Below are positions 1-10,632 of a stretch of DNA of 10,632 bases, in pieces; position 1 is the stretch's first letter; each line of letters starts with the position of its first letter. The notes beneath the pieces are model-generated. The model saw only the letters and a program-made list of their open reading frames with translations, was not told the origin of the DNA and ran no database searches. The position numbers and the translations under genes are program-made. Where the stretch lies: positions 1 through 10,632 of IMG/VR virus record IMGVR_UViG_2675903650_000012; one strand, 5' to 3'. This DNA comes from a virus. Taxonomy: Duplodnaviria > Heunggongvirae > Uroviricota > Caudoviricetes.

Positions 1-164
1 CCGGAAGTTACAGGACAATGGCAGGAGGAAAACTACAGCCCGCAATACGAAAAAGGCCACGCAGTTGCGCAGCCTTATGAATTCTGGTTAAAATCCATTC
101 GATTATAAAAATGTATATCTCATGCTGTTGCCCGAACCCACTCAGGCTTTTTTTTGCCCACAAG

Positions 165-395
165 AAAGCCCCTCCGGAGAGGGGCTAAAGCCGCGTATCT
201 GTATCATCATGCACATGGTGCCGGGTGCCTCCCGGTGAGTTCAGCCCGGTGCCACTAAACCCGCGTCATTCTCGTTTTGATAATCAGAAATTATACCGTC
301 ACCAGTCGCCCCTCCGCTCAGGGGGATTCACCATGCGAAATTTTTTTAACAAATGCCCAGTCTGACAGGCAACTGTCAACTTACTGAATTGTGAG
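165..395. repeat. Structured repeat module, copy A: GC hairpin (168..185), ~120-bp imperfect palindrome closed by catggtg/caccatg (214..336), and conserved downstream blocks
   Basis: Identical or near-identical blocks shared with copy B: aaagcccctccggagaggggct; catggtgccgggtgcctcccggtgagttcag; gcccctccgc(t/a)cagggggattcaccatgc; ttttaacaaa; ca(a/g)c(t/a)gtcaac; ctgaattgtgag. The sequence between blocks has diverged. Confidence 0.6.
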
Positions 396-430
396 CAACA
401 TAGCATTTAACGGGGAACCTGTTTTCTGCA

Positions 431-459
431 GTAAAAAGGCCCACCGGAGCGGATGGGCC
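431..459 (-). terminator. Candidate rho-independent terminator on the minus strand, between the two repeat modules
   Basis: Stem ggccca/tgggcc (438..443 / 454..459) with a 10-nt loop; on the minus strand the hairpin is followed by a run of five T (complement of A 433..437). Confidence 0.45.
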
Positions 460-651
460 TGGAAGGATAGCGGTCATGTGATGCCGGTTTCCCGGTAACT
501 CAGCACCGGTATCTGAGTCAACGTTTTCTCTACTGGGTCATTTCCGATACGCCCTGCCTGCTGACAGGCTTTCATCACATCTGAAAATATAGCACCCTGA
601 CTGATACTGTAGTACCCAAGGTTCCAGAAACTGTGATGTATCCGGCACAGA

Positions 652-878
652 AAAGCCCCTCCGGAGAGGGGCTGGAGAGTGGCGCTATGTGCCATTGCAT
701 GGTGCCGGGTGCCTCCCGGTGAGTTCAGTATCAGCACCTGAACCCGCACAGAAAGGATAAGGGTCGGTGACAAAACACCAGTTGCTGATTGCCCCTCCGC
801 ACAGGGGGATTCACCATGCCAGTTTCTTTTAACAAACTCCCCGCAAACCAGACAACAGTCAACCGCCTGAATTGTGAG
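652..878. repeat. Structured repeat module, copy B (paralog of 165..395): hairpin 655..672, palindromic core 698..819
   Basis: Same ordered conserved blocks as copy A with different intervening sequence; the gttcag...ctgaac hairpin is perfect here and has one mismatch in copy A. Confidence 0.6.
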
Positions 879-1002
879 GTATTTAAAAATTTCAACGGGT
901 AACTGATACCCTGCTAATCGCCTGATGCTTTCTTTTTCAGCAACGGGAAAGCAACAACCACCACACCCACCAGCCGCCCATTTACCACAAATAAAAAATC
1001 CT

Positions 1003-1200
1003 TCACTGCGGAAGGCGTCTGTAACAACCGAACTGATAGTCTGCCAGACCCGCCATAACCAGCTGGGTCAGTATTAACTGGCAGCGTTCGCGTGAAAGGT
1101 AAGTATTCTGCGCAATCTCCCCGACTGTCGCCGGTTCGGTGGCACTTAATTCATTAAACACCACTCTGGCGGTTTCTGTCATATCCTGCTGTTTTAGCAT
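1003..1200 (-). CDS. Small hypothetical protein (65 aa) with an HTH/winged-helix-like segment, downstream of Q
   Basis: Taken from the internal ATG (MLKQQDMTETARVV...) of the 1003..1293 ORF, preceded by a purine-rich gggaaaaagac; the upstream GTG start in the track lacks an RBS and would overlap the terminator region. The segment ATVGEIAQNTYLSRERCQLILTQLVMAGLA resembles a DNA-binding HTH. Confidence 0.45.
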   Translation of the reverse strand: MLKQQDMTETARVVFNELSATEPATVGEIAQNTYLSRERCQLILTQLVMAGLADYQFGCYRRLPQ

Positions 1201-1320
1201 GTCTTTTTCCCTTTTCCGGTTAACGTGACACACCAATAACTCTTGTCGAAAAAGCCAGCAAGCTGAAAGACCGGTATTCACCACCACCAGCACGTTTACT
1301 GTACTGATGCGATTTCAGTC

Positions 1321-1347
1321 ATAAAAAACCCGCCAGGCGGCGGGTTT
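1321..1347 (-). terminator. Strong intrinsic terminator directly downstream of Q (tR'-like position)
   Basis: Perfect 6-bp GC stem cccgcc/ggcggg (1329..1334 / 1339..1344) with a 4-nt loop; on the minus strand it is followed by six T (complement of A 1323..1328). It lies ~60 nt after the Q stop codon. Confidence 0.65.
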
Positions 1348-1404
1348 AAGTTGTGTGGCGTAGTAACCACTCTTAACATACTGACATACTTTTTGCGGAC
1401 CGCG

Positions 1405-1797
1405 CTAATCATTTTTTACTTTTTTGGGCAGCCAGTCGTCCATCTCCAGCCTTACACCCAGCATCGACAGACATCCGTCAATAAATCCTTCAGCAATCTG
1501 CATCTCAATTCGTATTGCCTTTTCGCTCTTCTTTCTTGTTCTGGCAATCTGCCTTTTTGATATGCGCAGCAGATAATGAGCTACCAGCAGCGAATACTCG
1601 TCCGGTTTTTTCTTCTTCAGGCGCGTAAGGCAGTTTTCGATGATAAGGCCGTCATCATCGCTGCAGGCCGGGCGAGGTTTAGCGGTGGATGGTAAAAGGC
1701 CTTTAAATCCAGCAGCTATCGGAGAATAGTCCACCCCGGCGTTACCACTTGCCGCCCATGCCCCCCAGCGTTCGAGAACCATCTGAATATCACGCAT
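1405..1797 (-). CDS. Q: Late-gene antitermination protein Q (QuuD/phage-21-type Q family)
   Basis: Translation from the ATG at 1797 (MRDIQMVLERWGAWAA ... RLEMDDW...), with GGAG 7-10 nt upstream; the track start at 1812 is a TTG. The N-terminus and the ~130-aa length match my memory of E. coli cryptic-prophage Q proteins (QuuD-like). It is the last gene of the nin-region operon. Confidence 0.7.
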   Translation of the reverse strand: MRDIQMVLERWGAWAASGNAGVDYSPIAAGFKGLLPSTAKPRPACSDDDGLIIENCLTRLKKKKPDEYSLLVAHYLLRISKRQIARTRKKSEKAIRIEMQIAEGFIDGCLSMLGVRLEMDDWLPKKVKND

Positions 1798-1814
1798 CAA
1801 CTTTCTCCACAAAA

Positions 1815-2810
1815 TCAGGACAGCACACCAATCGCCAGCGCGCGATCGATAAAACGAAATATCAGCTCCAGCTGGGAGCCATACTTCTCTTCAAATGCCA
1901 CGGTATCCGCATGCAGCTCGTCGTGATGCTTTCTGCACAAAGGCAACACAAAGAGGTCATGCGCTTTTGTAGCCATTCCACCCTGACCGTGACCTATCAG
2001 GTGGTGGGGATCATCAGCAGGCTTTCCACAACATGCGCACGGCTGCGTCTTAACCCAGCGCGTGTACTTTTCATTAACCCAGCGGCGACGTTTTGGGCGT
2101 AACATAAAAGACTCCGGCGACTCCGGATCCACTTTCAGCGCCAGCACCTTTTTCGCTTTATCCCGGATAATACTGGTGGCGGGAACCGAAGGCACAAGGT
2201 CACTTTCCCGGGTGACAGACGGCACAACCGTCTTCGGTAATCTCAGTACCTTACGGGCTGCACTTTCCGGTAAGGCATCCGCCAGGTCATTACGAATCAG
2301 CCACCAGCACAGTTCCGGCATTGTCACAACGTGACTGTCATCAAAACCGAGATCCCGACGCACAACAGACAACACCCAGCGGGCACAGTTATCCGTTGCC
2401 ATTGATTCCAGCCGTTCCGTGAACTGATCGCGCAGCTGGTTATCGCAGTGCCAGCACAGACGGATTGCGCCCGGAGCGTGTCGCATTGTGGTCATGTTCT
2501 CGCTGTGCCATCCGGAATGAGGCCACTGGCAGCCTTTTTCACGAAGTAACCAGCTTTCAAGACATTCCACGCCACCAGCACGACGGATCACTGCCTCATG
2601 GCGGAACACGGACCGAACGGCAGGATCATCCGCCAGCGGTTGTGATGCCGCCGGAACGGCACCACTGGCGAAAGATGAATAACGCTCCGGCTCAGGCTCC
2701 AGCAGGACACGCCCCTGCATAAACAGGGGCATCAGCTCTGAACCTGGCCTGAACAATACGATCCCCATACGCGGGGCAATTTCAGGGGTCAGTAGTGCTC
2801 TCACAGTCAC
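1815..2810 (-). CDS. DUF968-like phage protein (YdfU-like) with a C-terminal Cys/His zinc-finger or HNH-like motif
   Basis: 331-aa ORF; C-terminus CACCGKPADDPHHLIGHGQGGMATKAHDLFVLPLCRKHHDELH (C-x2-C ... HH ... C ... HH ... H). It sits immediately upstream of Q, as ydfU does in Qin-like prophages (from memory). Start uncertain: GTG at 2810 or GTG at 2804 behind a GAGG. Confidence 0.7.
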   Translation of the reverse strand: MTVRALLTPEIAPRMGIVLFRPGSELMPLFMQGRVLLEPEPERYSSFASGAVPAASQPLADDPAVRSVFRHEAVIRRAGGVECLESWLLREKGCQWPHSGWHSENMTTMRHAPGAIRLCWHCDNQLRDQFTERLESMATDNCARWVLSVVRRDLGFDDSHVVTMPELCWWLIRNDLADALPESAARKVLRLPKTVVPSVTRESDLVPSVPATSIIRDKAKKVLALKVDPESPESFMLRPKRRRWVNEKYTRWVKTQPCACCGKPADDPHHLIGHGQGGMATKAHDLFVLPLCRKHHDELHADTVAFEEKYGSQLELIFRFIDRALAIGVLS

Positions 2811-2811
2811 C

Positions 2812-3627
2812 TCAATGAACGGTATCGAGCAGCTTTAACAGCTCAGGAAATCGGGATTCGAAGAAATGCGGCTGCGTCTCGCGCGGATTTGCAGGACTGG
2901 TGATGTTCTTGCCGAACATGCAGCCTTTCGCGGTCAGCGACCAGAATTTTTTGATGTTGTTAATCGCGGTACGGCTGTATCGTTCGCGTTGTTCAACGAT
3001 CCCCAGCTTCGCCATCTGGTGATATGCCTGATTAGCCGTCAGGCGGATACCATACTGCTTCAGCAGTGCACTCAGCGACAGCGTAGGGCGGCTTGAACCA
3101 TCTGGCGCATCAGCAGGTGCATCAATGGCATAGATCGGCATAAGTTCAGGAAGACCAGCTACCTTTGATAATTTCTGGTATGCACCAAGTTTCGAGGAGT
3201 TTGACAGATTTAGAGTCTTTGCTGCTGATTCAAGCAGAATGACCCCGGATTTAATTTTGTCGGATGTGGTTTCTTCTGGTGATGAATTATGAAGCGCATC
3301 AAAAGTACGTATCACTTTTAAGCTGAATGCCGGGCTGATCCACATTGCATATGCATAGACCAGCTCTTTACAGACATACGTCCCACCATTGCGCCCCTGA
3401 ATGGTGATGACAGGAATACTACGGGAATCTCCCGTAGTTTCTTCTTCCAATAATTCCACAAGAGCCTTCGTTTCAGGACGACGCATAAACTCGTGAACTT
3501 CCAGCGAACGGGAGGAGCGATTCTCACCAGCGGCAAGAAGAGCAGCTTTCTGAAGGTCGTTAAGACAGTAGTTAGATTCGAAGTACTGGCGCACAGAAAC
3601 GCCATCAATTACAAGCAACTGATTCAT
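2812..3627 (-). CDS. KilA-N domain protein
   Basis: Translation from the ATG at 3627 (MNQLLVIDG...), with GGAG 7-10 nt upstream. KilA-N hallmark GGTYVCKELVYAYAMWISPAFSLKVIRTFD. The C-terminal half (from about residue 150) is a separate, unassigned region. Confidence 0.75.
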   Translation of the reverse strand: MNQLLVIDGVSVRQYFESNYCLNDLQKAALLAAGENRSSRSLEVHEFMRRPETKALVELLEEETTGDSRSIPVITIQGRNGGTYVCKELVYAYAMWISPAFSLKVIRTFDALHNSSPEETTSDKIKSGVILLESAAKTLNLSNSSKLGAYQKLSKVAGLPELMPIYAIDAPADAPDGSSRPTLSLSALLKQYGIRLTANQAYHQMAKLGIVEQRERYSRTAINNIKKFWSLTAKGCMFGKNITSPANPRETQPHFFESRFPELLKLLDTVH

Positions 3628-3724
3628 TGGTTTCTCCACAAATTTTTATCCACGAGCGGGACTGCACTCCCTTTTCGTTGATGCAGGATGAACTTACTGC
3701 GATTTTTAATAGTTATCAAGGATA

Positions 3725-3744
3725 CACTGTTCATAAATACAGTA
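3725..3744. promoter_or_regulatory. LexA-box-like palindrome (SOS-box candidate) upstream of the KilA-N/DUF968/Q genes
   Basis: CACTGTTCATAAATACAGTA: CTGT (3727..3730), an 8-nt AT-rich spacer, ACAG (3739..3742); 16 of 20 positions match the consensus TACTGTATATATATACAGTA as I recall it. Flanked by GATAC (3721..3725) and GTATC (3742..3746). Lies in the 160-bp gap between rusA and the KilA-N gene. Confidence 0.4.
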
Positions 3745-3789
3745 TCTTTAACGAGGTAATACCCAAATTTAGGGTGTTGCTCAATTCCG

Positions 3790-4185
3790 TTACCGAGTTG
3801 CTAATTTGCAACTCGCTTTTTCGTACTTACTGATAGTGATCTCGACCTTCCCTTCCGGGATAACCGGTCCCCACTCCACCAGCATTCTTTTCACCTGGCT
3901 GTCGTCTTCCCACACACCCGCGTGGGTCAGGGCGTCAAACAGCGCCTTGTTATAGTTGTCCAGATCGCGGATCCGGTTATCCGGAGGAAACAACACGATC
4001 TCCACTGAAGCAGGTGCCGACGTTGGTTTCGGCAGACGACGTAACTGCTCAACTATTGCTGCACACGCCGCGCTCTGGAATTTTCGCCCCGCCGCGCTTA
4101 TCAGGCTCTTACCAGCAAACGCCCCTTTGTTGGGGTGTCGCCAGTACGTGTTCACGCTGGGCGGAAAAGGCAGTATTAGCTTCAT
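3790..4185 (-). CDS. rusA: Crossover junction endodeoxyribonuclease RusA (Holliday junction resolvase)
   Basis: 131 aa; N-terminus MKLILPFPPSVNTYWRH resembles RusA (...LPWPPSNNRYYRH) and the catalytic-region motif RIRDLDNYNKALFDAL is present. The ATG overlaps the upstream stop (ATGA). Confidence 0.9.
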   Translation of the reverse strand: MKLILPFPPSVNTYWRHPNKGAFAGKSLISAAGRKFQSAACAAIVEQLRRLPKPTSAPASVEIVLFPPDNRIRDLDNYNKALFDALTHAGVWEDDSQVKRMLVEWGPVIPEGKVEITISKYEKASCKLATR

Positions 4186-4835
4186 GCCACCATCTCCCTG
4201 ACCAGTTTTTCCGCCTGCTGGCGAACCTGCGCCAGAAATGCCTCACCACATGCCTCAAGTTCATCGCGCCCGATGTAGCTGATTGCCGGTCCCTTCCAGG
4301 TCTTGTCGAAAACAGCAATAGCACCAGCGAAGAAAGCACCTGTTGGCACCTGCTTTTCGTCTTTCGGGATAAACCAGGCAGGCAGTTCAAAACCAATACG
4401 CCCGCGAATAAAAGCAATATGATCTGCATCTTCCGGCCACCACACTTCGCTGGTGGCAGCTTTGATCAGGAAAACATAGCGCCCGCCTTTATCACGCATG
4501 GCAGTGGCATGCTTCATGATGTAACGCATGCCGGTGATGTATTGCCCCTCATGCTGACTGGCGCGGCTGTACGGGGGATTGCCAAAGGCAGCACCTTTAA
4601 GCTCCGCAAGACGTTCTGACCAGTCATGCGCCAGCGCGTTGTCTTCCGCCGTGTAATACGCGGCACATTTGGCGTTATCACCGTCAGTGAACAGATCCAG
4701 AACAAACGGACCAAACAAGGTGTTAATTCCCCAGAAAATGTTATCCGGCGTGCGCCACTGATCTCCCACTTCCTTCAGTTCATGGGCTGGTTTATTCCGC
4801 AGTTCCACCAGCGCCTGGCAATATTTATTACTCAT
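4182..4835 (-). CDS. Phage DNA N6-adenine methyltransferase (Dam-type)
   Basis: 217 aa; NPPY catalytic motif (AAFGNPPYSRA); typical nin-region methylase of lambdoid phages. Start ATG overlaps the stop of the upstream 30-aa ORF (TAATG). Confidence 0.85.
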   Translation of the reverse strand: MSNKYCQALVELRNKPAHELKEVGDQWRTPDNIFWGINTLFGPFVLDLFTDGDNAKCAAYYTAEDNALAHDWSERLAELKGAAFGNPPYSRASQHEGQYITGMRYIMKHATAMRDKGGRYVFLIKAATSEVWWPEDADHIAFIRGRIGFELPAWFIPKDEKQVPTGAFFAGAIAVFDKTWKGPAISYIGRDELEACGEAFLAQVRQQAEKLVREMVA

Positions 4836-4927
4836 TAAGCCCCCACGTAAAAAGCATCCGCAATGTCTCCGGAAGTACAGCCAGGATGGGCTTCAATGAA
4901 TTTCTGAACTTCATTCAAAAGACTCAT
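4835..4927 (-). CDS. Small ORF (30 aa, MSLLNEVQKFIEAHPGCTSGDIADAFYVGA), hypothetical
   Basis: Not in the ORF track (too short). Strong SD AGGGGGTG 5 nt upstream of the ATG; its stop overlaps the methylase ATG (TAATG) and its start lies 2 nt after the O-like stop. Confidence 0.35.
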   Translation of the reverse strand: MSLLNEVQKFIEAHPGCTSGDIADAFYVGA

Positions 4928-4929
4928 GA

Positions 4930-5913
4930 TCACCCCCTGAATCCTGCCGGAATCTGGCTGTAGTCCACGTTGTCGTAACTGGCTTTGAAGTACGGGTCCT
5001 CGCGTCTGGCTGCAGATACCGCAGGAACTTCCCAGGATTCTTCGAAATGACGATCCGGACCAAAGAACGTCGACGCCTGCTTCACGAACTGGGTACCGGT
5101 ATTTCCAGAGACACGCACCCAGGCGGCATAGCGTTTCACACCGTCGAGCATGGTTTCGGGTGTCACACCTTCCCTGATTCGGGCTTTCCAGGCTTTAAAA
5201 GCGGCGGATTTTGAATTACCACCAGCACGTTTGGGATATTCCTGCCAGGCCTGTTCAAATTCCGGTGAATATTCCTGTCGGGCAGAACGCGCTGGCGCAG
5301 ACGCGTCAGCGGATGCATCAATAGTGTTTTTAGTCTCCGTTGTAATCTCTGTAGTAATCTCTGTATTTGTATCAACATTCAGCGTATCCCCTGTTCCGTT
5401 ATGACGTCGGGGGGTGTTCCGTTTTAACGTAATAGCTGTATCGCTGATTGCATTATTGCTGTTACTTTCTGGCGAAACAGAAGAAGGTGTGGTGATGGCC
5501 GCAATTGCCTGTGGGTTGATCCCGACAAACAAAATATTGCTGCATTTCACCCCATCGAGCATTTCCACCGTGCGTAAATCCAGAGTAATAAACCCTGCAT
5601 CGCGCAGACGCTTCAGCGCATCTGCGGTTTCCCTTTTCCCGAAACCAAACTGCTCAGCAAACGCCTGGTAGCTTCTTTGCAGTTTGTCGCCCTGAAAACG
5701 CTTGCGATATCCCAGCAACGCTCCGGTGTGCTCATCCCTGACCTCTGTCGGGCGGTACCAGTAAACGATCTCTGAAAGCAGAGCGATAGCCGTCGCATCC
5801 GGACGCCCACTGGGTAGTCGAATATATTTCCACCAGTTCGCAGGTGTAACATTGCCGGAAATATTAATTTGACCAATAGCCATAACTTCCGGTGTGGGGG
5901 CGTAACGGCTCAT
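4930..5913 (-). CDS. Phage replication initiator / replisome organizer (lambda O-like), with iterons inside the gene
   Basis: 327 aa; N-terminal region (...IVYWYRPTEVRDEHTGALLGYRKRFQGDKLQRSYQAFAEQFGFGKRETADALKRLRDAGFI...) resembles DnaD/replisome-organizer N-domains. A central linker (TEITTEITTETKNT, ASADASA) is encoded by direct DNA repeats, as ori-lambda lies within O. Confidence 0.65.
   Translation of the reverse strand: MSRYAPTPEVMAIGQINISGNVTPANWWKYIRLPSGRPDATAIALLSEIVYWYRPTEVRDEHTGALLGYRKRFQGDKLQRSYQAFAEQFGFGKRETADALKRLRDAGFITLDLRTVEMLDGVKCSNILFVGINPQAIAAITTPSSVSPESNSNNAISDTAITLKRNTPRRHNGTGDTLNVDTNTEITTEITTETKNTIDASADASAPARSARQEYSPEFEQAWQEYPKRAGGNSKSAAFKAWKARIREGVTPETMLDGVKRYAAWVRVSGNTGTQFVKQASTFFGPDRHFEESWEVPAVSAARREDPYFKASYDNVDYSQIPAGFRG
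5333..5380. repeat. Candidate origin iterons inside the O-like gene
   Basis: tagtctccgttg / taatctctgtag / taatctctgtat / ttgtatcaacat: tandem 12-bp units, with two exact gtaatctctgta copies at 5342..5353 and 5354..5365. Confidence 0.5.
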
Positions 5914-6209
5914 ACAACCTCCTTCCGCGGCATGAGAATTGTGTAGCCACGCGCAGGTTGTAGTCTGGCTTTTGCATCAATAGTAAGCGTTGCAATTTTT
6001 CGGATATGAAGATAACCAGCTCTTTCCAGTGCCAGGGTTTCCCTGAATATCGCTTGCTTAGAACAACAGCAGAAATCAGCAAGCACCTGATGATCAATAA
6101 CTCTCTCGCCTTCACCGTCTGAAGAACCCGACATCAAAACACGCAACATAATCAGGCGCTGAATCGGGTTATCGAAAGCACATCCGCACACAAACTGAAA
6201 ACAGTTCAC
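5910..6209 (-). CDS. Hypothetical protein (99 aa), translationally coupled to the O-like gene
   Basis: Stop overlaps the O-like ATG (ATGA at 5910..5913) and start overlaps the upstream stop (6206..6209). Cys-rich (CGC, CCC); a possible HTH at QAIFRETLALERAGYL. Confidence 0.5.
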   Translation of the reverse strand: MNCFQFVCGCAFDNPIQRLIMLRVLMSGSSDGEGERVIDHQVLADFCCCSKQAIFRETLALERAGYLHIRKIATLTIDAKARLQPARGYTILMPRKEVV

Positions 6210-6430
6210 GCCACACCTCCCAGACGCTTAAACATTTTTCCGGAGCAAAAGGCTATAAGCGGCATACTGATGCGGTAATTACGGCCCAGCGGTTCACAAA
6301 TCACCTTCTGACATTCACGGTCAACCAGGCTGACACGTAGAACATGCCCTGCAGGCGTGGTGTACCACTGACCAGGACGAGGACAACGGAAAGTCTGATT
6401 GGTAAACCGTTTGAAAATATTCCGGATCAT
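6206..6430 (-). CDS. Hypothetical protein (74 aa)
   Basis: ATGA overlaps with both neighbours; same strand and operon context. No family recognised. Confidence 0.45.
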   Translation of the reverse strand: MIRNIFKRFTNQTFRCPRPGQWYTTPAGHVLRVSLVDRECQKVICEPLGRNYRISMPLIAFCSGKMFKRLGGVA

Positions 6431-7587
6431 TTGCGCCCCCTTACCTCTGAAGGGTTCAGCGACAAATTTATGAGACTGGCCAGTAGCGCCGCGTCGTTGA
6501 TGCGGTCATACAGACTTACAGCCAGCGGGGATTCGGCTTTTGCCAACATGGGATAAAGCTGCTGCAGCCAGACCTTGTGGATTACCGACAGGTGGGAGTA
6601 AAGCACGCTGGCGTTATCTGCGGCATCGCTCAGCGTGGATGGCTTTGAAAGCAGTTTTTCCATCTGGTTAAAGGCATTGATGTATGCCTCTTTGAACCGG
6701 GCAGCACGTTTACCCGTGAAACCCATAGCAAGAAACGCAAAACCGTCTCGTGTGATTTGATAGCAAGGGAGCTTGCGTGTACCACCGTTCGGTTGATTTA
6801 CCGAAATCGATGTCTCCGCAAAATTGCGGGCACAAAACTCTGGGGAACAATCCAGAGTGCGGATCTTTTTCAGCACATCGTCGTGACGCTTGGAGAAGGA
6901 GTTGGCAACAGCCAAAGAAGTGGTAACGGCCTGGCCGTTGTCAATGGTGATTTCAGGTTGAGTGAGGGCTGGGATCGTAGCCATGATGGCAGCCTCCGTT
7001 GACAGTGAAAAACTTCCACCACCGGAAACGCCAATTTCACTGGTGGTGAACTGGACGGGGTTGGCGTAACCGGCGTCAACGGAGACCGGCGCACCTTTCG
7101 GTGCCCCCGCCCAGCCCACCATAATCTGGATGTGAGCAAATGCGGACGATAAAAAAGACGCTGGCGCGTCATACATCGCCGTTGACAATTTCAGGACGCC
7201 AATCCCGGCACCCGCTTTATAAGGTGCCTGAACAGTGTAACGTCCCGGAATGGCAGAATCAATGTGCTGGTGGTCCTTCACACTCAACAAAATCACGCCT
7301 GAATTTCCACAAAGGACTAAAGCACTCATGCTGGTAGTCTTTGCGAAGATAGATAACGCGCTGTGTTTCTGGCTCCCAACGAATAACATGAACATAAAGT
7401 CCTCTTCCGTCACGAAACCAGCGGTTAAGTTCCTGCACAACTCGCCCCCCACAGTCAGGTAAAGTTCTCTGTGGTTACTTACAGCCAGGTGATTTGGTAA
7501 TCTGCATTCATGCCGTAACAACAGGTGTTCAGCGACGCTGACCACCAGCTGTTGCGACAAACGGTTATTTGCCGTTAAACTATTCAT
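6427..7587 (-). CDS. Rha-family phage regulatory protein with a ~200-aa N-terminal extension of unknown function
   Basis: Residues ~205-320 (MATIPALTQPEITIDNGQAVTTSLAVANSFSKRHDDVLKKI...YQITRDGFAFLAMGFTGKRAARFKEAYINAFNQMEKLL) match the Rha N-terminal domain. The ORF continues in frame ~200 aa upstream (Gly-rich linker VSGGGSFSLS) and its ATG overlaps the stop of the CII-like gene (ATGA at 7584..7587). Confidence 0.65.
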   Translation of the reverse strand: MNSLTANNRLSQQLVVSVAEHLLLRHECRLPNHLAVSNHRELYLTVGGELCRNLTAGFVTEEDFMFMLFVGSQKHSALSIFAKTTSMSALVLCGNSGVILLSVKDHQHIDSAIPGRYTVQAPYKAGAGIGVLKLSTAMYDAPASFLSSAFAHIQIMVGWAGAPKGAPVSVDAGYANPVQFTTSEIGVSGGGSFSLSTEAAIMATIPALTQPEITIDNGQAVTTSLAVANSFSKRHDDVLKKIRTLDCSPEFCARNFAETSISVNQPNGGTRKLPCYQITRDGFAFLAMGFTGKRAARFKEAYINAFNQMEKLLSKPSTLSDAADNASVLYSHLSVIHKVWLQQLYPMLAKAESPLAVSLYDRINDAALLASLINLSLNPSEVRGRK

Positions 7588-8153
7588 GCGTTAGTTTCTC
7601 CACAACCAGAAGCAATCGACGCCACGACGCCCGGAGCTGCACACTCGCGGGCGTTACTATTTTCTGGAGCGCAGAAGATTTTGTAGACCAGTGCTGCATG
7701 CTCCTGGAGCTTCGAAATTGAGAGGTACAGCTCGTCGTTAATTGCTGTCTTCTCATGCGGTTCCACTACACCGTCTTCGATTGCTGAACGAATCTGTCTG
7801 GAATAACTGCCGATCTGTTCAATGACTTCCAGCAGACGCTGGTTAATATCGGCGTTGTCCACATCCTCGACGTCAGGAAGAGACACAAAGACGCCATTTG
7901 CAGACTGCGCCACAGCGTCAGCAATGAAGTGAGTTCCACCAGCACGTTGTAAAATCATTGCCCATCCCAGCGGGAAAATCTGATCGCCATCGGCACGAAG
8001 GCGATTGAATAAAGCGTTCTCTGTTACATCCAGCCACTCAGCAGCTTCAGCGTAACCCCCCGGCAACGCCGCGATAGTTTTTCTGACAGCTTTCACGTAC
8101 CACTCAGGCTGTTTTTCTACTTTCCAGTGATGCTTACCCACGGTTAGCCTCAT
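7584..8153 (-). CDS. Putative CII-like / YdaT-like regulator (189 aa)
   Basis: Second gene after the Cro-like gene, the usual CII/YdaT position. Putative HTH GGYAEAAEWLDVTENALFNRLRADGDQ. No SD is visible upstream of the ATG (cagaacg ATG). The family assignment is positional and weak. Confidence 0.5.
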   Translation of the reverse strand: MRLTVGKHHWKVEKQPEWYVKAVRKTIAALPGGYAEAAEWLDVTENALFNRLRADGDQIFPLGWAMILQRAGGTHFIADAVAQSANGVFVSLPDVEDVDNADINQRLLEVIEQIGSYSRQIRSAIEDGVVEPHEKTAINDELYLSISKLQEHAALVYKIFCAPENSNARECAAPGVVASIASGCGETNA

Positions 8154-8184
8154 CGTTCTGTGGTTAAAAATTGAAGGTGTTCTG

Positions 8185-8385
8185 TTAATCTTTCGGATAG
8201 ATATCCGGTCTTAAGTCAGATTTCGTAATTGCACCTGACGTGCATTGCTCAAGTTTTTTAGCCAGCACAAAACTGGCTTTTTTATAACCATTGAAAACCA
8301 GCCGTAAGTAGCCTGGTGTTGAGCCAACTTTTCCGGCCAACTCGCCCTGCTGTTCTTTGGTTAAAGAGTCCCAATACGCTTTCAT
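8185..8385 (-). CDS. cro: Cro-like HTH regulator (YdaS-type, 66 aa)
   Basis: Translation from the internal ATG at 8385 (MKAYWDSLTKEQQGELAGKVGSTPGYLRLVFNGYKK...LRPDIYPKD), with GGAGG ~10 nt upstream. The C-terminus (...TKSDLRPDI) resembles YdaS (...CEELRPDI). The longer 167-aa ORF would begin upstream of the predicted pR start site and overlap the operators. Confidence 0.7.
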   Translation of the reverse strand: MKAYWDSLTKEQQGELAGKVGSTPGYLRLVFNGYKKASFVLAKKLEQCTSGAITKSDLRPDIYPKD

Positions 8386-8390
8386 ACAAT

Positions 8391-8470
8391 ATGTACCTCC
8401 GATATACATATTACATGATTGAGATGAACCTTCAAGATACTTGTACCCTATCGGTACAAAGGTTTTAATT
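8391..8470. promoter_or_regulatory. Divergent switch region (OR-like): candidate pR (minus), candidate pRM (plus, leaderless cI), and two 19-bp operators
   Basis: Operators ATGTACC-tccga-TATACAT (8391..8409) and the perfect palindrome TTGTACC-ctatc-GGTACAA (8441..8459). Candidate pR on the minus strand: -35 TTGAAG (8430..8435), 16-bp spacer, -10 TAATAT (8408..8413). Candidate pRM on the plus strand: -35 TTGTAC (8441..8446), 17-bp spacer, -10 TTTAAT (8464..8469), placing the start site at or next to the cI ATG (8476). Confidence 0.5.
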
Positions 8471-8475
8471 TCGTT

Positions 8476-9150
8476 ATGAAAACAGTCCATGACATCCGGC
8501 GGTCTAACGCCAGAAAACTGAGAGATGGTGTTGGCGGGAATTCTTCCTTTGCCACCATGATTGATCGCGAGCCAACCCAGACCAGCAGGTTTATGGGAGA
8601 TGGTGCTACTAAAAATATCGGTGACAGCATGGCACGGCACATCGAAAAATGTTTCGACCTGCCTGTCGGATGGCTTGATCAAGAACACCAGACAACAAAC
8701 ATCACAAAAAAACCTGATGTTTCAATTACTAACAAACAAATAACGTTAGTCCCTGTCATATCATGGGTACAGGCCGGAGCATGGAAAGAAGTTGGCTATT
8801 CTGAGGTTGATTTGAGCACAGCAGAAACTTATCCCTGCCCTGTACCCTGTGGCGAAATGACTTATATCTTGCGGGTGATTGGTGATTCAATGATTGATGA
8901 GTACCGCCCGGGAGACATGATTTTTGTAGATCCTGAAGTCCCTGCCTGCCACGGTGACGACGTTATTGCATTGATGCACGATACAGGCGAAACCACCTTT
9001 AAGCGGTTGATAGAAGATGGAACACAGCGTTACCTCAAAGCATTAAACCCAAACTGGCCTGAACCTTACATTAAGATCAACGGTAATTGCTCTATAATTG
9101 GCACAGTAATTTTCTCAGGAAAACCAAGAAGATACAAAATAAAGGCCTAA
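8476..9150 (+). CDS. cI: CI/C2-type prophage repressor (HTH N-domain plus S24 LexA-like autopeptidase C-domain)
   Basis: 224 aa; C-domain LVPVISWVQAGAWKEV...VIGDSMIDEYRPGDMIFVDPEV...TFKRL...LKALNPNWPEPYIKINGNCSIIG closely resembles P22 C2 / lambda CI. Catalytic Ser (GDSM) and Lys (TFKRL) are present, as is an Ala-Gly candidate cleavage site (VQAGAW). Confidence 0.9.
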   Translation: MKTVHDIRRSNARKLRDGVGGNSSFATMIDREPTQTSRFMGDGATKNIGDSMARHIEKCFDLPVGWLDQEHQTTNITKKPDVSITNKQITLVPVISWVQAGAWKEVGYSEVDLSTAETYPCPVPCGEMTYILRVIGDSMIDEYRPGDMIFVDPEVPACHGDDVIALMHDTGETTFKRLIEDGTQRYLKALNPNWPEPYIKINGNCSIIGTVIFSGKPRRYKIKA

Positions 9151-9161
9151 TCAATATTTAT

Positions 9162-9185
9162 AACCTGCTTCGGCAGGTTTTTTTA
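9162..9185 (+). terminator. Intrinsic terminator of the cI transcript
   Basis: Stem aacctgc/gcaggtt (9162..9168 / 9173..9179) with loop ttcg, followed by a T run through 9184; begins 12 nt after the cI stop. Confidence 0.7.
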
Positions 9186-9188
9186 TAC

Positions 9189-9221
9189 TTGACAATGTAC
9201 CCTTGAGATACATAATGTATC
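9189..9221 (+). promoter_or_regulatory. pL-like promoter with overlapping operators
   Basis: -35 TTGACA (9189..9194), 16-bp spacer, -10 CATAAT (9211..9216). Operator ATGTACC-cttga-GATACAT (9195..9213) has the same architecture as the two OR sites; a perfect 15-bp palindrome GATACATaATGTATC (9207..9221) overlaps the -10. Confidence 0.6.
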
Positions 9222-9633
9222 TAAAAGAAACATGTCACAGGCAAGATTAAACAAAATTTGGTTGTAACACGGCGTATGGCACATGCGTCGTTAGCGGTCT
9301 GGGGACGTTAAAGGGGACAATCCACTCCTTGCTCGGGCAAACAAACCAGGTAGCCGGAATGTGCAAGTCAATGAGGATGCTGATAAGACGCCTAACCAGC
9401 GTGGCGATTCGGTTTGACGCCTGGGAAGAGACCAGGGTGCAACGATGAGGGCATTTATGGAACCGCGACAAAGTATGGTGCCGTAACTGGCTAAGTGCTC
9501 TCAGCGTTGTGGTAATCCGCGAAATGGCGCGGCGGTAAGTATGGCGGGGTTATTCCTTCCCCGTTGAGGACACCGGGTTGTCAGGTTGACCATACGCTTA
9601 AGTGACAAGCCCACCACAACAGCCACTGCTTTG

Positions 9634-9679
9634 GCGGTACCAGTTTGTACACTTGCTTCCGGCTGGTACCGCTCTTTTT
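9634..9679 (+). terminator. Strong intrinsic terminator inside the long leader downstream of pL
   Basis: Perfect 10-bp stem gcggtaccag/ctggtaccgc (9634..9643 / 9663..9672) with a 19-nt loop, followed by tcttttt (9673..9679). Confidence 0.6.
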
Positions 9680-9816
9680 ACAAAACAGAGAAGAGCATCA
9701 CCGGACGACGGGCTCATAACCCAATCCACCCGGGCGGCTGCCACCGCAGGTGTTCTTCTCTGTTTTGTGGAGAAACCAACCGACCTTGCAGGGTCGATAT
9801 GATGAGGAGCAGCAAA

Positions 9817-10179
9817 ATGGCTAGCGAACGCAGTACTGATGTGCAGGCATTTATCGGGGAGCTGGACGGCGGCGTATTTGAAACCAAAATCGGCGCTGTT
9901 CTCAGTGAAGTCGCTTCAGGTGTGATGAACACGAAAACCAAAGGGAAGGTCTCGCTCAACCTGGAAATCGAACCGTTTGATGAGAACCGTGTGAAAATAA
10001 AACACAAACTCTCATATGTTCGTCCGACTAACCGCGGGAAAATTTCCGAAGAAGACACCACCGAAACGCCGATGTATGTCAATCGCGGTGGTCGCCTGAC
10101 TATTCTGCAGGAAGACCAGGGACAATTACTGACTCTTGCCGGTGAACCTGACGGAAAACTCCGCGCAGCAGGTCATTAA
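9817..10179 (+). CDS. Hypothetical protein (120 aa), first gene of the pL-side operon
   Basis: Translation from the ATG at 9817 (MASERSTDVQAFIGELDGG...), with strong SD GAGGAG (9804..9809) 7 nt upstream. The upstream in-frame extension to 9586 runs through the terminator hairpin and begins at a TTG. Acidic, with no Arg-rich motif, so not N-like. Confidence 0.6.
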   Translation: MASERSTDVQAFIGELDGGVFETKIGAVLSEVASGVMNTKTKGKVSLNLEIEPFDENRVKIKHKLSYVRPTNRGKISEEDTTETPMYVNRGGRLTILQEDQGQLLTLAGEPDGKLRAAGH

Positions 10180-10244
10180 TATCGTTCTTAATTAACTGAT
10201 TATTTATCTCATCACTGAATATCTTTATATAGTGAGGACTTATT

Positions 10245-10628
10245 ATGTCTCAGAACTTAGACGCAACCGCAATTAATCAAATCCATGCCCTTATTTCTGC
10301 GCAGGGTGTTAATGAAATTATCAGTAAGATTGGTGCCGATGCTGTGGCATTGCCTGAGAATTTCCGCATTCATGATCTGGAAAAATTTAATTTAAATCGC
10401 TTCCGTTTCCGTGGTGCGCTTTCCACTGCCAGCATCGATGACTTTACCCGTTATTCTAAAGATCTTGCAGATGAAGGCACCCGCTGCTTTATCGATGCTG
10501 ATAATATGCGTGCCGTCAGTGTGCTTAACCTGGGTACTATTGATGAACCAGGTCACGCAGATAACACCGCCACTCTCAAACTGAAAAAGACAGCACCGTT
10601 CTCTGTGTCAACGACGGATGAAAAGTGA
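10245..10628 (+). CDS. Hypothetical protein (127 aa)
   Basis: Complete ORF from ATG to TGA, with SD GAGGA ~7 nt upstream (agtgaggacttatt ATG). No family recognised. Confidence 0.6.
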
Positions 10629-10632
10629 TCCA

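Follow-up and report, generated by a model that had tools for sequence, protein, structure and literature searches.

What is the element that is repeated downstream of the antiterminator gene Q in the Caudoviricetes record IMGVR_UViG_2675903650_000012? The 10,632-nt stretch analysed here (positions 1 to 10,632 of that record, hereinafter designated the window) carries two diverged copies of a structured module, copy A (156-395) and copy B (643-878). An earlier note made from the letters alone (hereinafter designated the original prediction) had described these two copies, with hairpins and stems that we find at or near the positions it gave, and had left two readings side by side, an ERIC-related palindromic element and a pair of small regulatory RNA genes at a site of late-region morons. 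The covariance-model search against Rfam that it had proposed settles the identity of the element: both copies are full-length members of STnc100 (RF02076), an already known and catalogued prophage small RNA (sRNA) family related to PasD and EcOnc27, and they lie in the usual place of that family.

Two STnc100 units and a decayed third downstream of Q

The whole window was scanned with Rfam 15, at gathering thresholds first and at relaxed thresholds after. Copy A matches RF02076 at 365-156 on the minus strand with 165.8 bits (E 3.3e-38) and copy B at 848-643 on the same strand with 141.4 bits (E 5.8e-32), both over model positions 1-206 and at 3.5x and 3.0x the gathering score of 47 bits, respectively. 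The consensus helices of the family, comprising a closing helix (P1), internal hairpins (P2, P3 and P4) and a terminator, can form in both copies, and relatives show compensatory change in P1, P3 and the terminator. Minimum free energy folding recovers all five in copy A, and P1, P3, P4 and the terminator in copy B. The structural part of the original account stands, while the strand, of which the minus is the functional one, had been left unstated and the catalogued family had gone unrecognised.

Global alignment of copies A and B gives 69% identity (174/252), concentrated in blocks with differing stretches between them, as described in the original prediction; a 31-nt block (214-244 and 698-728) is 100% identical and an 88-nt block (308-395 and 791-878) 80% identical. 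The GC hairpin AGCCCCTCCGGAGAGGGGCT occupies 167-186 and 654-673, and a weaker variant of it is found at 437-460; the repeat family built on this hairpin has three members (159-186, 429-456 and 646-673) spaced by 270 and 217 nt. Positions 1-1500 hold nine terminator-like sites, all on the minus strand, compared with 1.4 +/- 1.2 in shuffles, and these sites include 186-167, 460-437 and 673-654. Judged by the Rfam E-values and the terminator excess, repeats and structure are far beyond chance.

The count of two holds for intact copies, and a third, decayed one between them had been missed. It emerges in the relaxed scan below the gathering score (Table 1). In a three-way alignment, its promoter block and the 5' strand of P1 are gone, and what is left comprises remnants of P3, of P4 and of the 3' strand of P1, together with an intact terminator-like hairpin (460-437) followed by TTTTT, a make-up that indicates a former three-unit tandem array. 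For annotation, 156-878 is best labelled as three STnc100 units, and neither as hypothetical open reading frames (ORFs) nor as ERIC.

The minus-strand Q gene sets the direction of late transcription, so that the original placement of the module downstream of Q is correct in that direction. A prophage in E. coli NCTC9112 shares 99.9% identity with the window, and in it genes for a SASA-family (nanS-p-type) esterase, holin, lysozyme and terminase follow leftward on the same strand. The array thus lies within the late operon, between Q/PR' and the nanS-p esterase and lysis genes, in the slot that holds stx and other morons in related phages. Both copies are on the strand that carries Q and the late genes, and the location in the late region recurs in 353 phage records, mostly of Shiga toxin (Stx) phages; for Shiga-toxin-type prophages, a tandem array downstream of Q is nothing unusual. 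At least 80% of window positions 1-1400 is carried by 19 complete E. coli genomes, and some match is present in 3064/5426 genomes. A scan of genome contigs with a pattern of 15 specified bases returned chance matches only, in unrelated phyla. Full-length RF02076 matches on the late strand past Q, together with colinearity to the EcOnc27/AsxR region of prophage Sp5 (see below), bear out the second of the two original readings, that of a pair of small regulatory RNA genes at a moron site.

Table 1 Features of the STnc100 array and its surroundings. Positions refer to the window unless a contig is named.
Feature	Position	Strand	Details
Copy A, Rfam match	156-365	minus	predicted RNA 336 to about 160
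Copy A promoter region	337-395	minus	-10-like TAAAAA 348-343 after TGT; -35-like TTGCCT 372-367, 18-nt spacer; upstream TTGACA 379-374; block CTCACAATTCAG 395-384, common to B
Copy A P1	336-329/220-213	minus	8 bp, one G.U pair
Copy A P2	324-320/313-309	minus	CCCCT-N6-AGGGG
Copy A X/X' strands	X 305-300; X' 251-246	minus	CUGGUG with CACCGG; X' in P3 loop
Copy A P3	262-255/244-237	minus	gttcag/ctgaac stem
Copy A P4	235-231/225-221	minus	CCGGG-N5-CCCGG
Copy A variable linker	212-187	minus
Copy A terminator	186-167	minus	U-tract 166-159
Decayed third STnc100 copy	431-604	minus	30.1 bits, E 2.5e-4 (relaxed scan), under gathering score 47
Copy B, Rfam match	643-848	minus	predicted RNA 819 to about 647
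Copy B promoter region	820-878	minus	-10-like TAAAAG 831-826 after TGT; -35-like TTGTCT 855-850, 18-nt spacer; TTGACT 862-857; block CTCACAATTCAG 878-867, common to A
Copy B P1	819-812/704-697	minus	8 bp
Copy B P2	807-803/796-792	minus
Copy B X/X' strands	X 789-783; X' 736-730	minus	AUCAGCA with UGCUGAU; X' in P3 loop
Copy B P3	745-738/728-721	minus
Copy B P4	719-715/709-705	minus
Copy B variable linker	696-674	minus
Copy B terminator stem-loop	673-654	minus	U-tract 653-646
AsxR/AgvB-type short sRNA gene	100-152	plus	AsxR 56.5 bits, model 1-53, E 9.5e-9; AgvB 37 bits
Candidate tR' hairpin	1323-1344	minus	CCCGCC-GCCT-GGCGGG then TTTTTT; read from sequence
Antiterminator Q gene	1405-1812	minus	PF06530, E 3.3e-52; antiterminator Q family protein in NCTC9112 annotation
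Array locus, contig L127	2265-3380
Array locus, contig L250	342-1038
Array loci, contig L277	4349-5513; 8357-8555

Structure, covariation and reassortment across relatives

To place the two copies among relatives, we drew on two homologue sets. The first, obtained by scanning IMG/VR with P2 and the P1 5' strand as anchor, comprises 119 loci and 86 distinct units; in an alignment of 45 sequences, pairs of P3 and of the terminator (5/8 in the terminator) change on both sides. P1 and P2 are fixed by this anchor, and the scan was hence repeated with a P4 anchor, yielding a second set of much more diverse units, all of which, where tested against RF02076, pass the gathering score with 52-132 bits. 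In an alignment of 29 diverse 5' domains (hereinafter designated A3), 91.3% of cells pair, and both sides change in 6/8 P1 pairs and 6/8 P3 pairs. The covariation score is 0.375; shuffles give 0.159 (0/500), and slid partners do not exceed 0.093. The compensatory changes in P1, P3 and the terminator bear out the selection on structure that the original prediction had proposed along with this very test on relatives. Junction and loop sequences (GGUGAAUC, GCGG before P3, and CACCGGGAGGCACCCGGCACC) are near-invariant across very different relatives.

RNAalifold, run on the first set, pairs the 5' strand with the first copy of a duplicated GGCACC, an alternative that we treat as an invariant-column artefact because the unbiased set shows covariation for the Rfam P1; it is perhaps an echo of the arrangement in PasD1 and PasD2, two sRNAs of enteropathogenic E. 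coli (EPEC) E2348/69. The duplicated GGCACC (GGCACCCGGCACC) lies at 697-719 and 213-235 on the minus strand, and the P1 5' strand could, owing to this duplication, pair with either copy. PasD has a single GGCGCC, and the duplication may reflect how P4 arose.

Each unit is bracketed by putative expression signals. Promoter-like sites (at least 8/12 matches) end 3-7 nt before P1 in 105/126 units, compared with 18% of shuffled upstream regions, and a terminator-like hairpin with a T-run follows P1 in 104/126 units, with the T-run starting at a median of 45 nt past P1. Promoter, structured domain, short linker and terminator in each unit amount to the anatomy of an independent sRNA gene. Coordinates from table S6 of PMC8550237 served to retrieve the PasD loci, and in PasD1/PasD2 the 5' end estimated from RNA-seq maps to the G of GCATGGTG, with TTGACT-N18-TAAAAA-N7 in front of it. 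By homology we infer that transcription starts at 336 in copy A and at 819 in copy B, at the G of GCAUGGUG. In view of the PasD1/PasD2 5' ends and of the promoter-like sites found upstream of P1 throughout the family, positions 1-29 of the RF02076 model (window 337-365 and 820-848) probably represent the -10 region and start site, and not RNA. The promoter region of copy A is near-identical to the sequence upstream of the Sp5 copy.

In both copies, the 6-7 nt located 3' of P2 (hereinafter designated X) complement the P3 loop (X'), through AUCAGCA and UGCUGAU in copy B and through CUGGUG and CACCGG in copy A. Relatives carry different and yet complementary pairs, namely AAUGAUC/GAUCAUU in PasD, CUGGUG/UACCAG in Sp5, and CCAGUC/GACUGG, CUAGAC/GUCUAG, ACUGGAUA/UAUCCAGU and GCCAGGUCG/UGACCUGGC elsewhere. 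X/X' crosses P3 and hence forms a pseudoknot. As MAFFT shifts register in the P3 loop, we chose a permutation test (written in Python) on 11 representatives, each segment differing by at least 4 edits. Cognate X/X' pairs average 6.64 contiguous bp and -8.6 kcal/mol, compared with 4.36 bp and -3.7 kcal/mol for non-cognate pairs and 3.98 bp for shuffled P3 loops, and the cognate means are reached in 0/5000 permutations. A cruder comparison of cognate with non-cognate duplexes over wide windows, before P2 and P3 were parsed explicitly, had been nearly uninformative (-13.3 vs -11.7 kcal/mol). The nested consensus line that cmscan prints does not contain the pseudoknot, and the papers searched do not mention it, though it may be annotated elsewhere. 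With almost the whole P3 loop paired, the geometry would resemble a kissing interaction.

Alignment of the first-set units (hereinafter designated A1) reveals one 5' core joined to differing internal segments and to differing cassettes of linker and terminator. Two loci (L134 and L184) are chimeras that exchange A-type and B-type parts of the window, and four (L136, L148, L163 and L138) join an STnc100-type 5' domain to a PasD-type terminator (GGCTGCGCATGGCGTGGC); such chimeric units are, on sequence grounds, evidence for cassette reassortment at invariant blocks. Coarse clustering finds one internal type with six tail types and one tail type with seven internal types, at thresholds so coarse that A-type and B-type tails, which have a common terminator, are merged.

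Tandem pairs in relatives are spaced by 468 or 483 nt, like those of the window, or by 267 nt, and arrays of three to five units with a period of ~253 nt occur in IMG/VR prophage contigs (Table 1), with tRNA genes as neighbours at L127 and L250 and an isrI match at L277. PasA and PasD copies are reported to be distal and not tandem (Zhu et al., bioRxiv 10.64898/2026.05.13.724894), and it seems from this that tandem arrangement belongs to the STnc100 branch. This analysis adds the array organisation, the decayed middle copy, module reassortment, a probable promoter inside the Rfam model and a covarying pseudoknot; these additions leave the classification unchanged and, modest as they are, could steer experiments on why the STnc100 family keeps an elaborate conserved 5' domain.

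Proposed function and competing explanations

We favour, at a probability of about 0.82, the reading that copies A and B are separate genes, each under its own promoter and closed by its own terminator, for sRNAs that depend on Hfq and act by base pairing. On the late strand, each unit would consist of a sigma-70-type promoter, a 5' domain of ~123 nt, a linker of 23-26 nt and an intrinsic terminator. The 5' domain would be closed by the 8-bp P1, enclosing P2, P3, P4 and the pairing of the P2-adjacent strand with the P3 loop, and the variable linker would be largely single-stranded. The lysogen would produce RNAs of about 175 nt, which Hfq would bind and stabilise and which would engage in limited base pairing with mRNAs or other sRNAs. 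Copies A and B keep one scaffold and diverge in the internal variable segment and in the linker preceding the terminator, and would therefore have different target sets.

This reading builds on results established here (family membership, strand, anatomy, covariation in the structure, synteny, and no ORF that is conserved), whereas transcription, Hfq binding and pairing via the 3' part would carry over from published experiments on relatives. EcOnc27 was detected by Hfq cross-linking and analysis of cDNA (CRAC) and by northern blots (PMC4104026, PMC7873438), and overexpression of sRNA103 affects fimZ and espA (PMC12711010). Hfq-dependent stability is reported for the Pas sRNAs as a group, among which PasD1/PasD2 are about 172 nt long, and PasD chimeras recovered by RIL-seq (sequencing of interacting RNAs after ligation) form largely through the 3' 50 nt (PMC8550237). 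In EDL933, transcriptome reads cover 11/11 Rfam-annotated STnc100 copies, one of which was verified by northern blot (PMC5331693). Copies A and B would represent regulatory genes carried by a prophage, of a type that has already been connected with virulence control in enterohaemorrhagic E. coli (EHEC) and EPEC, where EcOnc27/sRNA103 lies beside stx2, AsxR and AgvB function as sponges of sRNAs, and PasD base-pairs with both virulence and core mRNAs.

Several points weigh against it. Expression of the window copies, like their targets, is something we infer from relatives, and the ribosomal coverage value spreads widely, from 0.04 to 3.2, among the EDL933 copies (PMC5331693). The linkers of A and B differ from the PasD seed UGUGAG. 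The U-tracts are short, with interruptions (UUUCUU in copy A, UUUUCU in copy B), and in both copies the -35 elements are weak and the spacers 18 nt, which makes promoter strength uncertain. Covariation in P2 is thin (1/5 pairs), and P4, the exact anchor of the second homologue set, is held constant there by the search. Finally, a pseudoknotted four-helix 5' domain with near-invariant junctions and loops appears over-elaborate for a simple Hfq-binding sRNA and hints at an additional function.

One tentative proposal, which we think more likely to fail than to hold, is that the constant STnc100/PasD 5' domain is an autonomous functional module that binds a host or phage factor or confers exceptional nuclease resistance, with prophages diversifying regulators by swapping the internal segment and the cassette of 3' seed and terminator, and by building tandem arrays. 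If this were true, the window would show a three-unit array caught between duplication and decay.

In a competing reading, the 5' domain might work by itself as a structured RNA (a protein-binding sponge or decoy, a stabiliser that resists nucleases, a ligand sensor, or a ribozyme), with Hfq-mediated pairing of the 3' tail secondary or absent in A and B. Covarying helices with near-invariant junctions and loops across distant relatives, the covarying pseudoknot, the free swapping of variable segment and 3' tail around a constant core, and arrays of up to five units would all fit such a role. We nevertheless consider it doubtful. The exact-match anchors account for part of the invariance seen in P4 and in the P1/P2 core. 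PasD, which lacks the P4 duplication, is still an abundant sRNA with reported Hfq-dependent stability, and the RIL-seq and CRAC data on relatives fit ordinary sRNA behaviour. There is no known ligand, protein partner or cleavage activity, and no gene is placed as the target of a riboswitch, each unit being followed by its own terminator and then by another unit or a convergent sRNA.

It is also very unlikely that the units act mainly in cis, as intrinsic terminators that insulate the nanS-p and lysis genes from Q-less read-through, with the RNAs as by-products. Five late-strand terminator-like hairpins do lie between ORF 1003-1293 and the left end of the window, together with a tR'-like hairpin at 1344-1323, and all of them are on the path of PR' transcription. 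Insulation needs hairpins alone, however, and leaves unexplained the conserved promoter and covarying 120-nt domain of each unit as well as the Hfq binding and abundant discrete RNAs of relatives; it may be an added effect, and not the reason for conservation.

That the modules encode small proteins on either strand deserves next to no credence. ORFs of 25-58 codons overlap the modules, and ribosome footprints are reported on some EDL933 copies (PMC5331693), but no ORF on either strand is common to more than 28/86 variants, in line with the original observation that no conserved frame spans the copies. In addition, the length of the variable segment takes all values modulo 3, the overlapping ORFs have no Pfam match, the AUG-led frames of A and B are unlike, with 11 and 28 codons from the 5'-proximal AUG, and substitutions track base pairing and not codons. 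The Prokaryotic Genome Annotation Pipeline (PGAP) places in NCTC9112 a plus-strand pseudogene, a 'hypothetical protein' with an internal stop and incomplete, across copy B (L001 12688-12828, corresponding to window 688-828); this entry speaks for coding and is most likely a spurious call over an RNA gene.

The first of the two original readings, a dispersed, ERIC/IRU-related core-genome repeat without a gene, is virtually excluded. For comparison, ERIC was defined by its 44-bp core (GTGAATCCCCAGGAGCTTACAT|AAGTAAGTGACTGGGGTGAGCG), reconstructed from primer sequences and then verified, within a ~127-bp imperfect palindrome. The module and the left end of this core have the 10-mer GTGAATCCCC in common, but the 22-nt ERIC1R target (the first 22 nt of the core) has 0 matches in the window within 3 mismatches, and blastn of 100-900 against a genuine ERIC copy (L243) returns only GTGAATCCCC, at E = 0.27. 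The ERIC core is found in E. coli at 100% identity and is present in 5426/5426 of the E. coli genomes searched, whereas the module is prophage-borne, has local hairpins only in place of a whole-element palindrome, and fits a different curated family (RF02076). By sequence, the likeness is a coincidence of one 10-mer.

Two further candidates were set aside. The four-helix junction, and the tRNA genes that Stx phages carry at this site, had made a tRNA or tmRNA worth considering; ARAGORN detects none in the window, the loops are of the wrong size, that of P4 being 5 nt, and the CCA/discriminator context is lacking. A riboswitch made of an aptamer and a terminator was judged improbable, since every unit is preceded by a promoter of its own and no gene lies downstream.

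Neighbouring features and comparison with known systems

To the right of Q lie genes for DUF968, KilA-N, RusA and Dam proteins, a CII-like gene, a Rha/Ash gene and an S24 repressor gene. The candidate tR' hairpin lies ~60-80 nt past the Q stop codon and was missed by a simple terminator scanner; it would end a short PR' transcript. Two more terminator-like hairpins occur on the late strand, one (53-76, minus) directly upstream of the nanS-p start and conserved in Sp5, and the other (1000-1015, minus) at the end of ORF 1003-1293. Farther away, matches to C4 antisense RNA (7039-7126, minus; 81.4 bits) and isrK (7151-7227, minus; 62.2 bits) both exceed their gathering scores and lie inside the mechanically called ORF 6427-7587, which has Ash and Rha domains, overlapping the Ash-domain part.

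Next to copy A, the plus-strand gene at 100-152 is homologous to AsxR (RF02703) but scores below the gathering cut-off of 63, owing to one C.A mismatch in the terminator stem. Copy A and this gene converge, and a few bases separate their 3' ends. Hfq-bound sRNAs in convergent pairs, AsxR/EcOnc27 and AgvB/EcOnc06, are known from the PR' moron site of at least 8 Sakai prophages (Tree et al. 2014, PMC4104026; PMC7873438). Copy A and 100-152 together form such a convergent dyad, located between the moron coding sequence past Q/PR' and the conserved downstream ORF and including one AsxR/AgvB-type member.

A close counterpart is the EcOnc27-AsxR dyad of Sp5 and 933W. Window positions 420-1, taken as the reverse complement, are colinear with the spacer between stx2B and ECs1207 of Sakai Sp5 at 83% column identity, and EcOnc27 and AsxR have been mapped in the Sp5 stx2B-nanS-p spacer (PMC4104026, PMC7873438, PMC12711010); EcOnc27/sRNA103 is noted to overlap an STnc100 annotation downstream of stx2B (Paganini et al., PMC12711010). 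In both settings, the promoter and 5' domain are near-identical, an AsxR-type gene is convergent and nanS-p comes next. By contrast, the window has no stx genes and holds a hypothetical ORF and two more STnc100 units upstream, copy A differs from the Sp5 copy in the internal variable segment, linker and terminator, and 100-152 differs from Sp5 AsxR by changes in its 5' half and a weakened terminator stem.

A common ancestor of STnc100 and PasD1/PasD2 of EPEC has been concluded (Zhu, Shabalina and Storz, bioRxiv 10.64898/2026.05.13.724894). PasD1/PasD2, which are EcOnc13 homologues, score 37.7 and 41.4 bits against RF02076, below its threshold. They resemble copies A and B in lying downstream of Q on the late strand, in a length of ~172 nt, and in the P1 5' strand, the GAAUC junction and an equivalent pseudoknot. 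They differ in having a single GGCGCC where STnc100 has the duplicated GGCACC that forms P4, and in a linker of their own, with a proposed UGUGAG seed, and their own terminator. In alignment A1 this PasD-type 3' part (UGUGAG-seed linker and terminator GGCUGCGCAUGGCGCGGCC) is absent from A and B, which have other linkers and a GCCCCUC/GAGGGGC terminator.

With ERIC/IRU, by comparison, the module has one 10-mer in common and differs in core, palindrome and genomic setting. OmrA/OmrB and PrrF1/PrrF2 are likewise neighbouring sRNA paralogues, each having a promoter and a terminator to itself, in part conserved and in part differing. They are core-genome genes with short, simple folds, whereas STnc100 units are cargo of prophages, have a large pseudoknotted 5' domain and form arrays of up to five. 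Zhu et al. cite them as a contrast case (bioRxiv 10.64898/2026.05.13.724894) to the distal PasA and PasD copies. Measured against STnc100 itself, both copies have the full model 1-206, its helices and terminator and its prophage late-region setting; nothing essential sets them apart, and what the window presents is a tandem array with a decayed middle copy.

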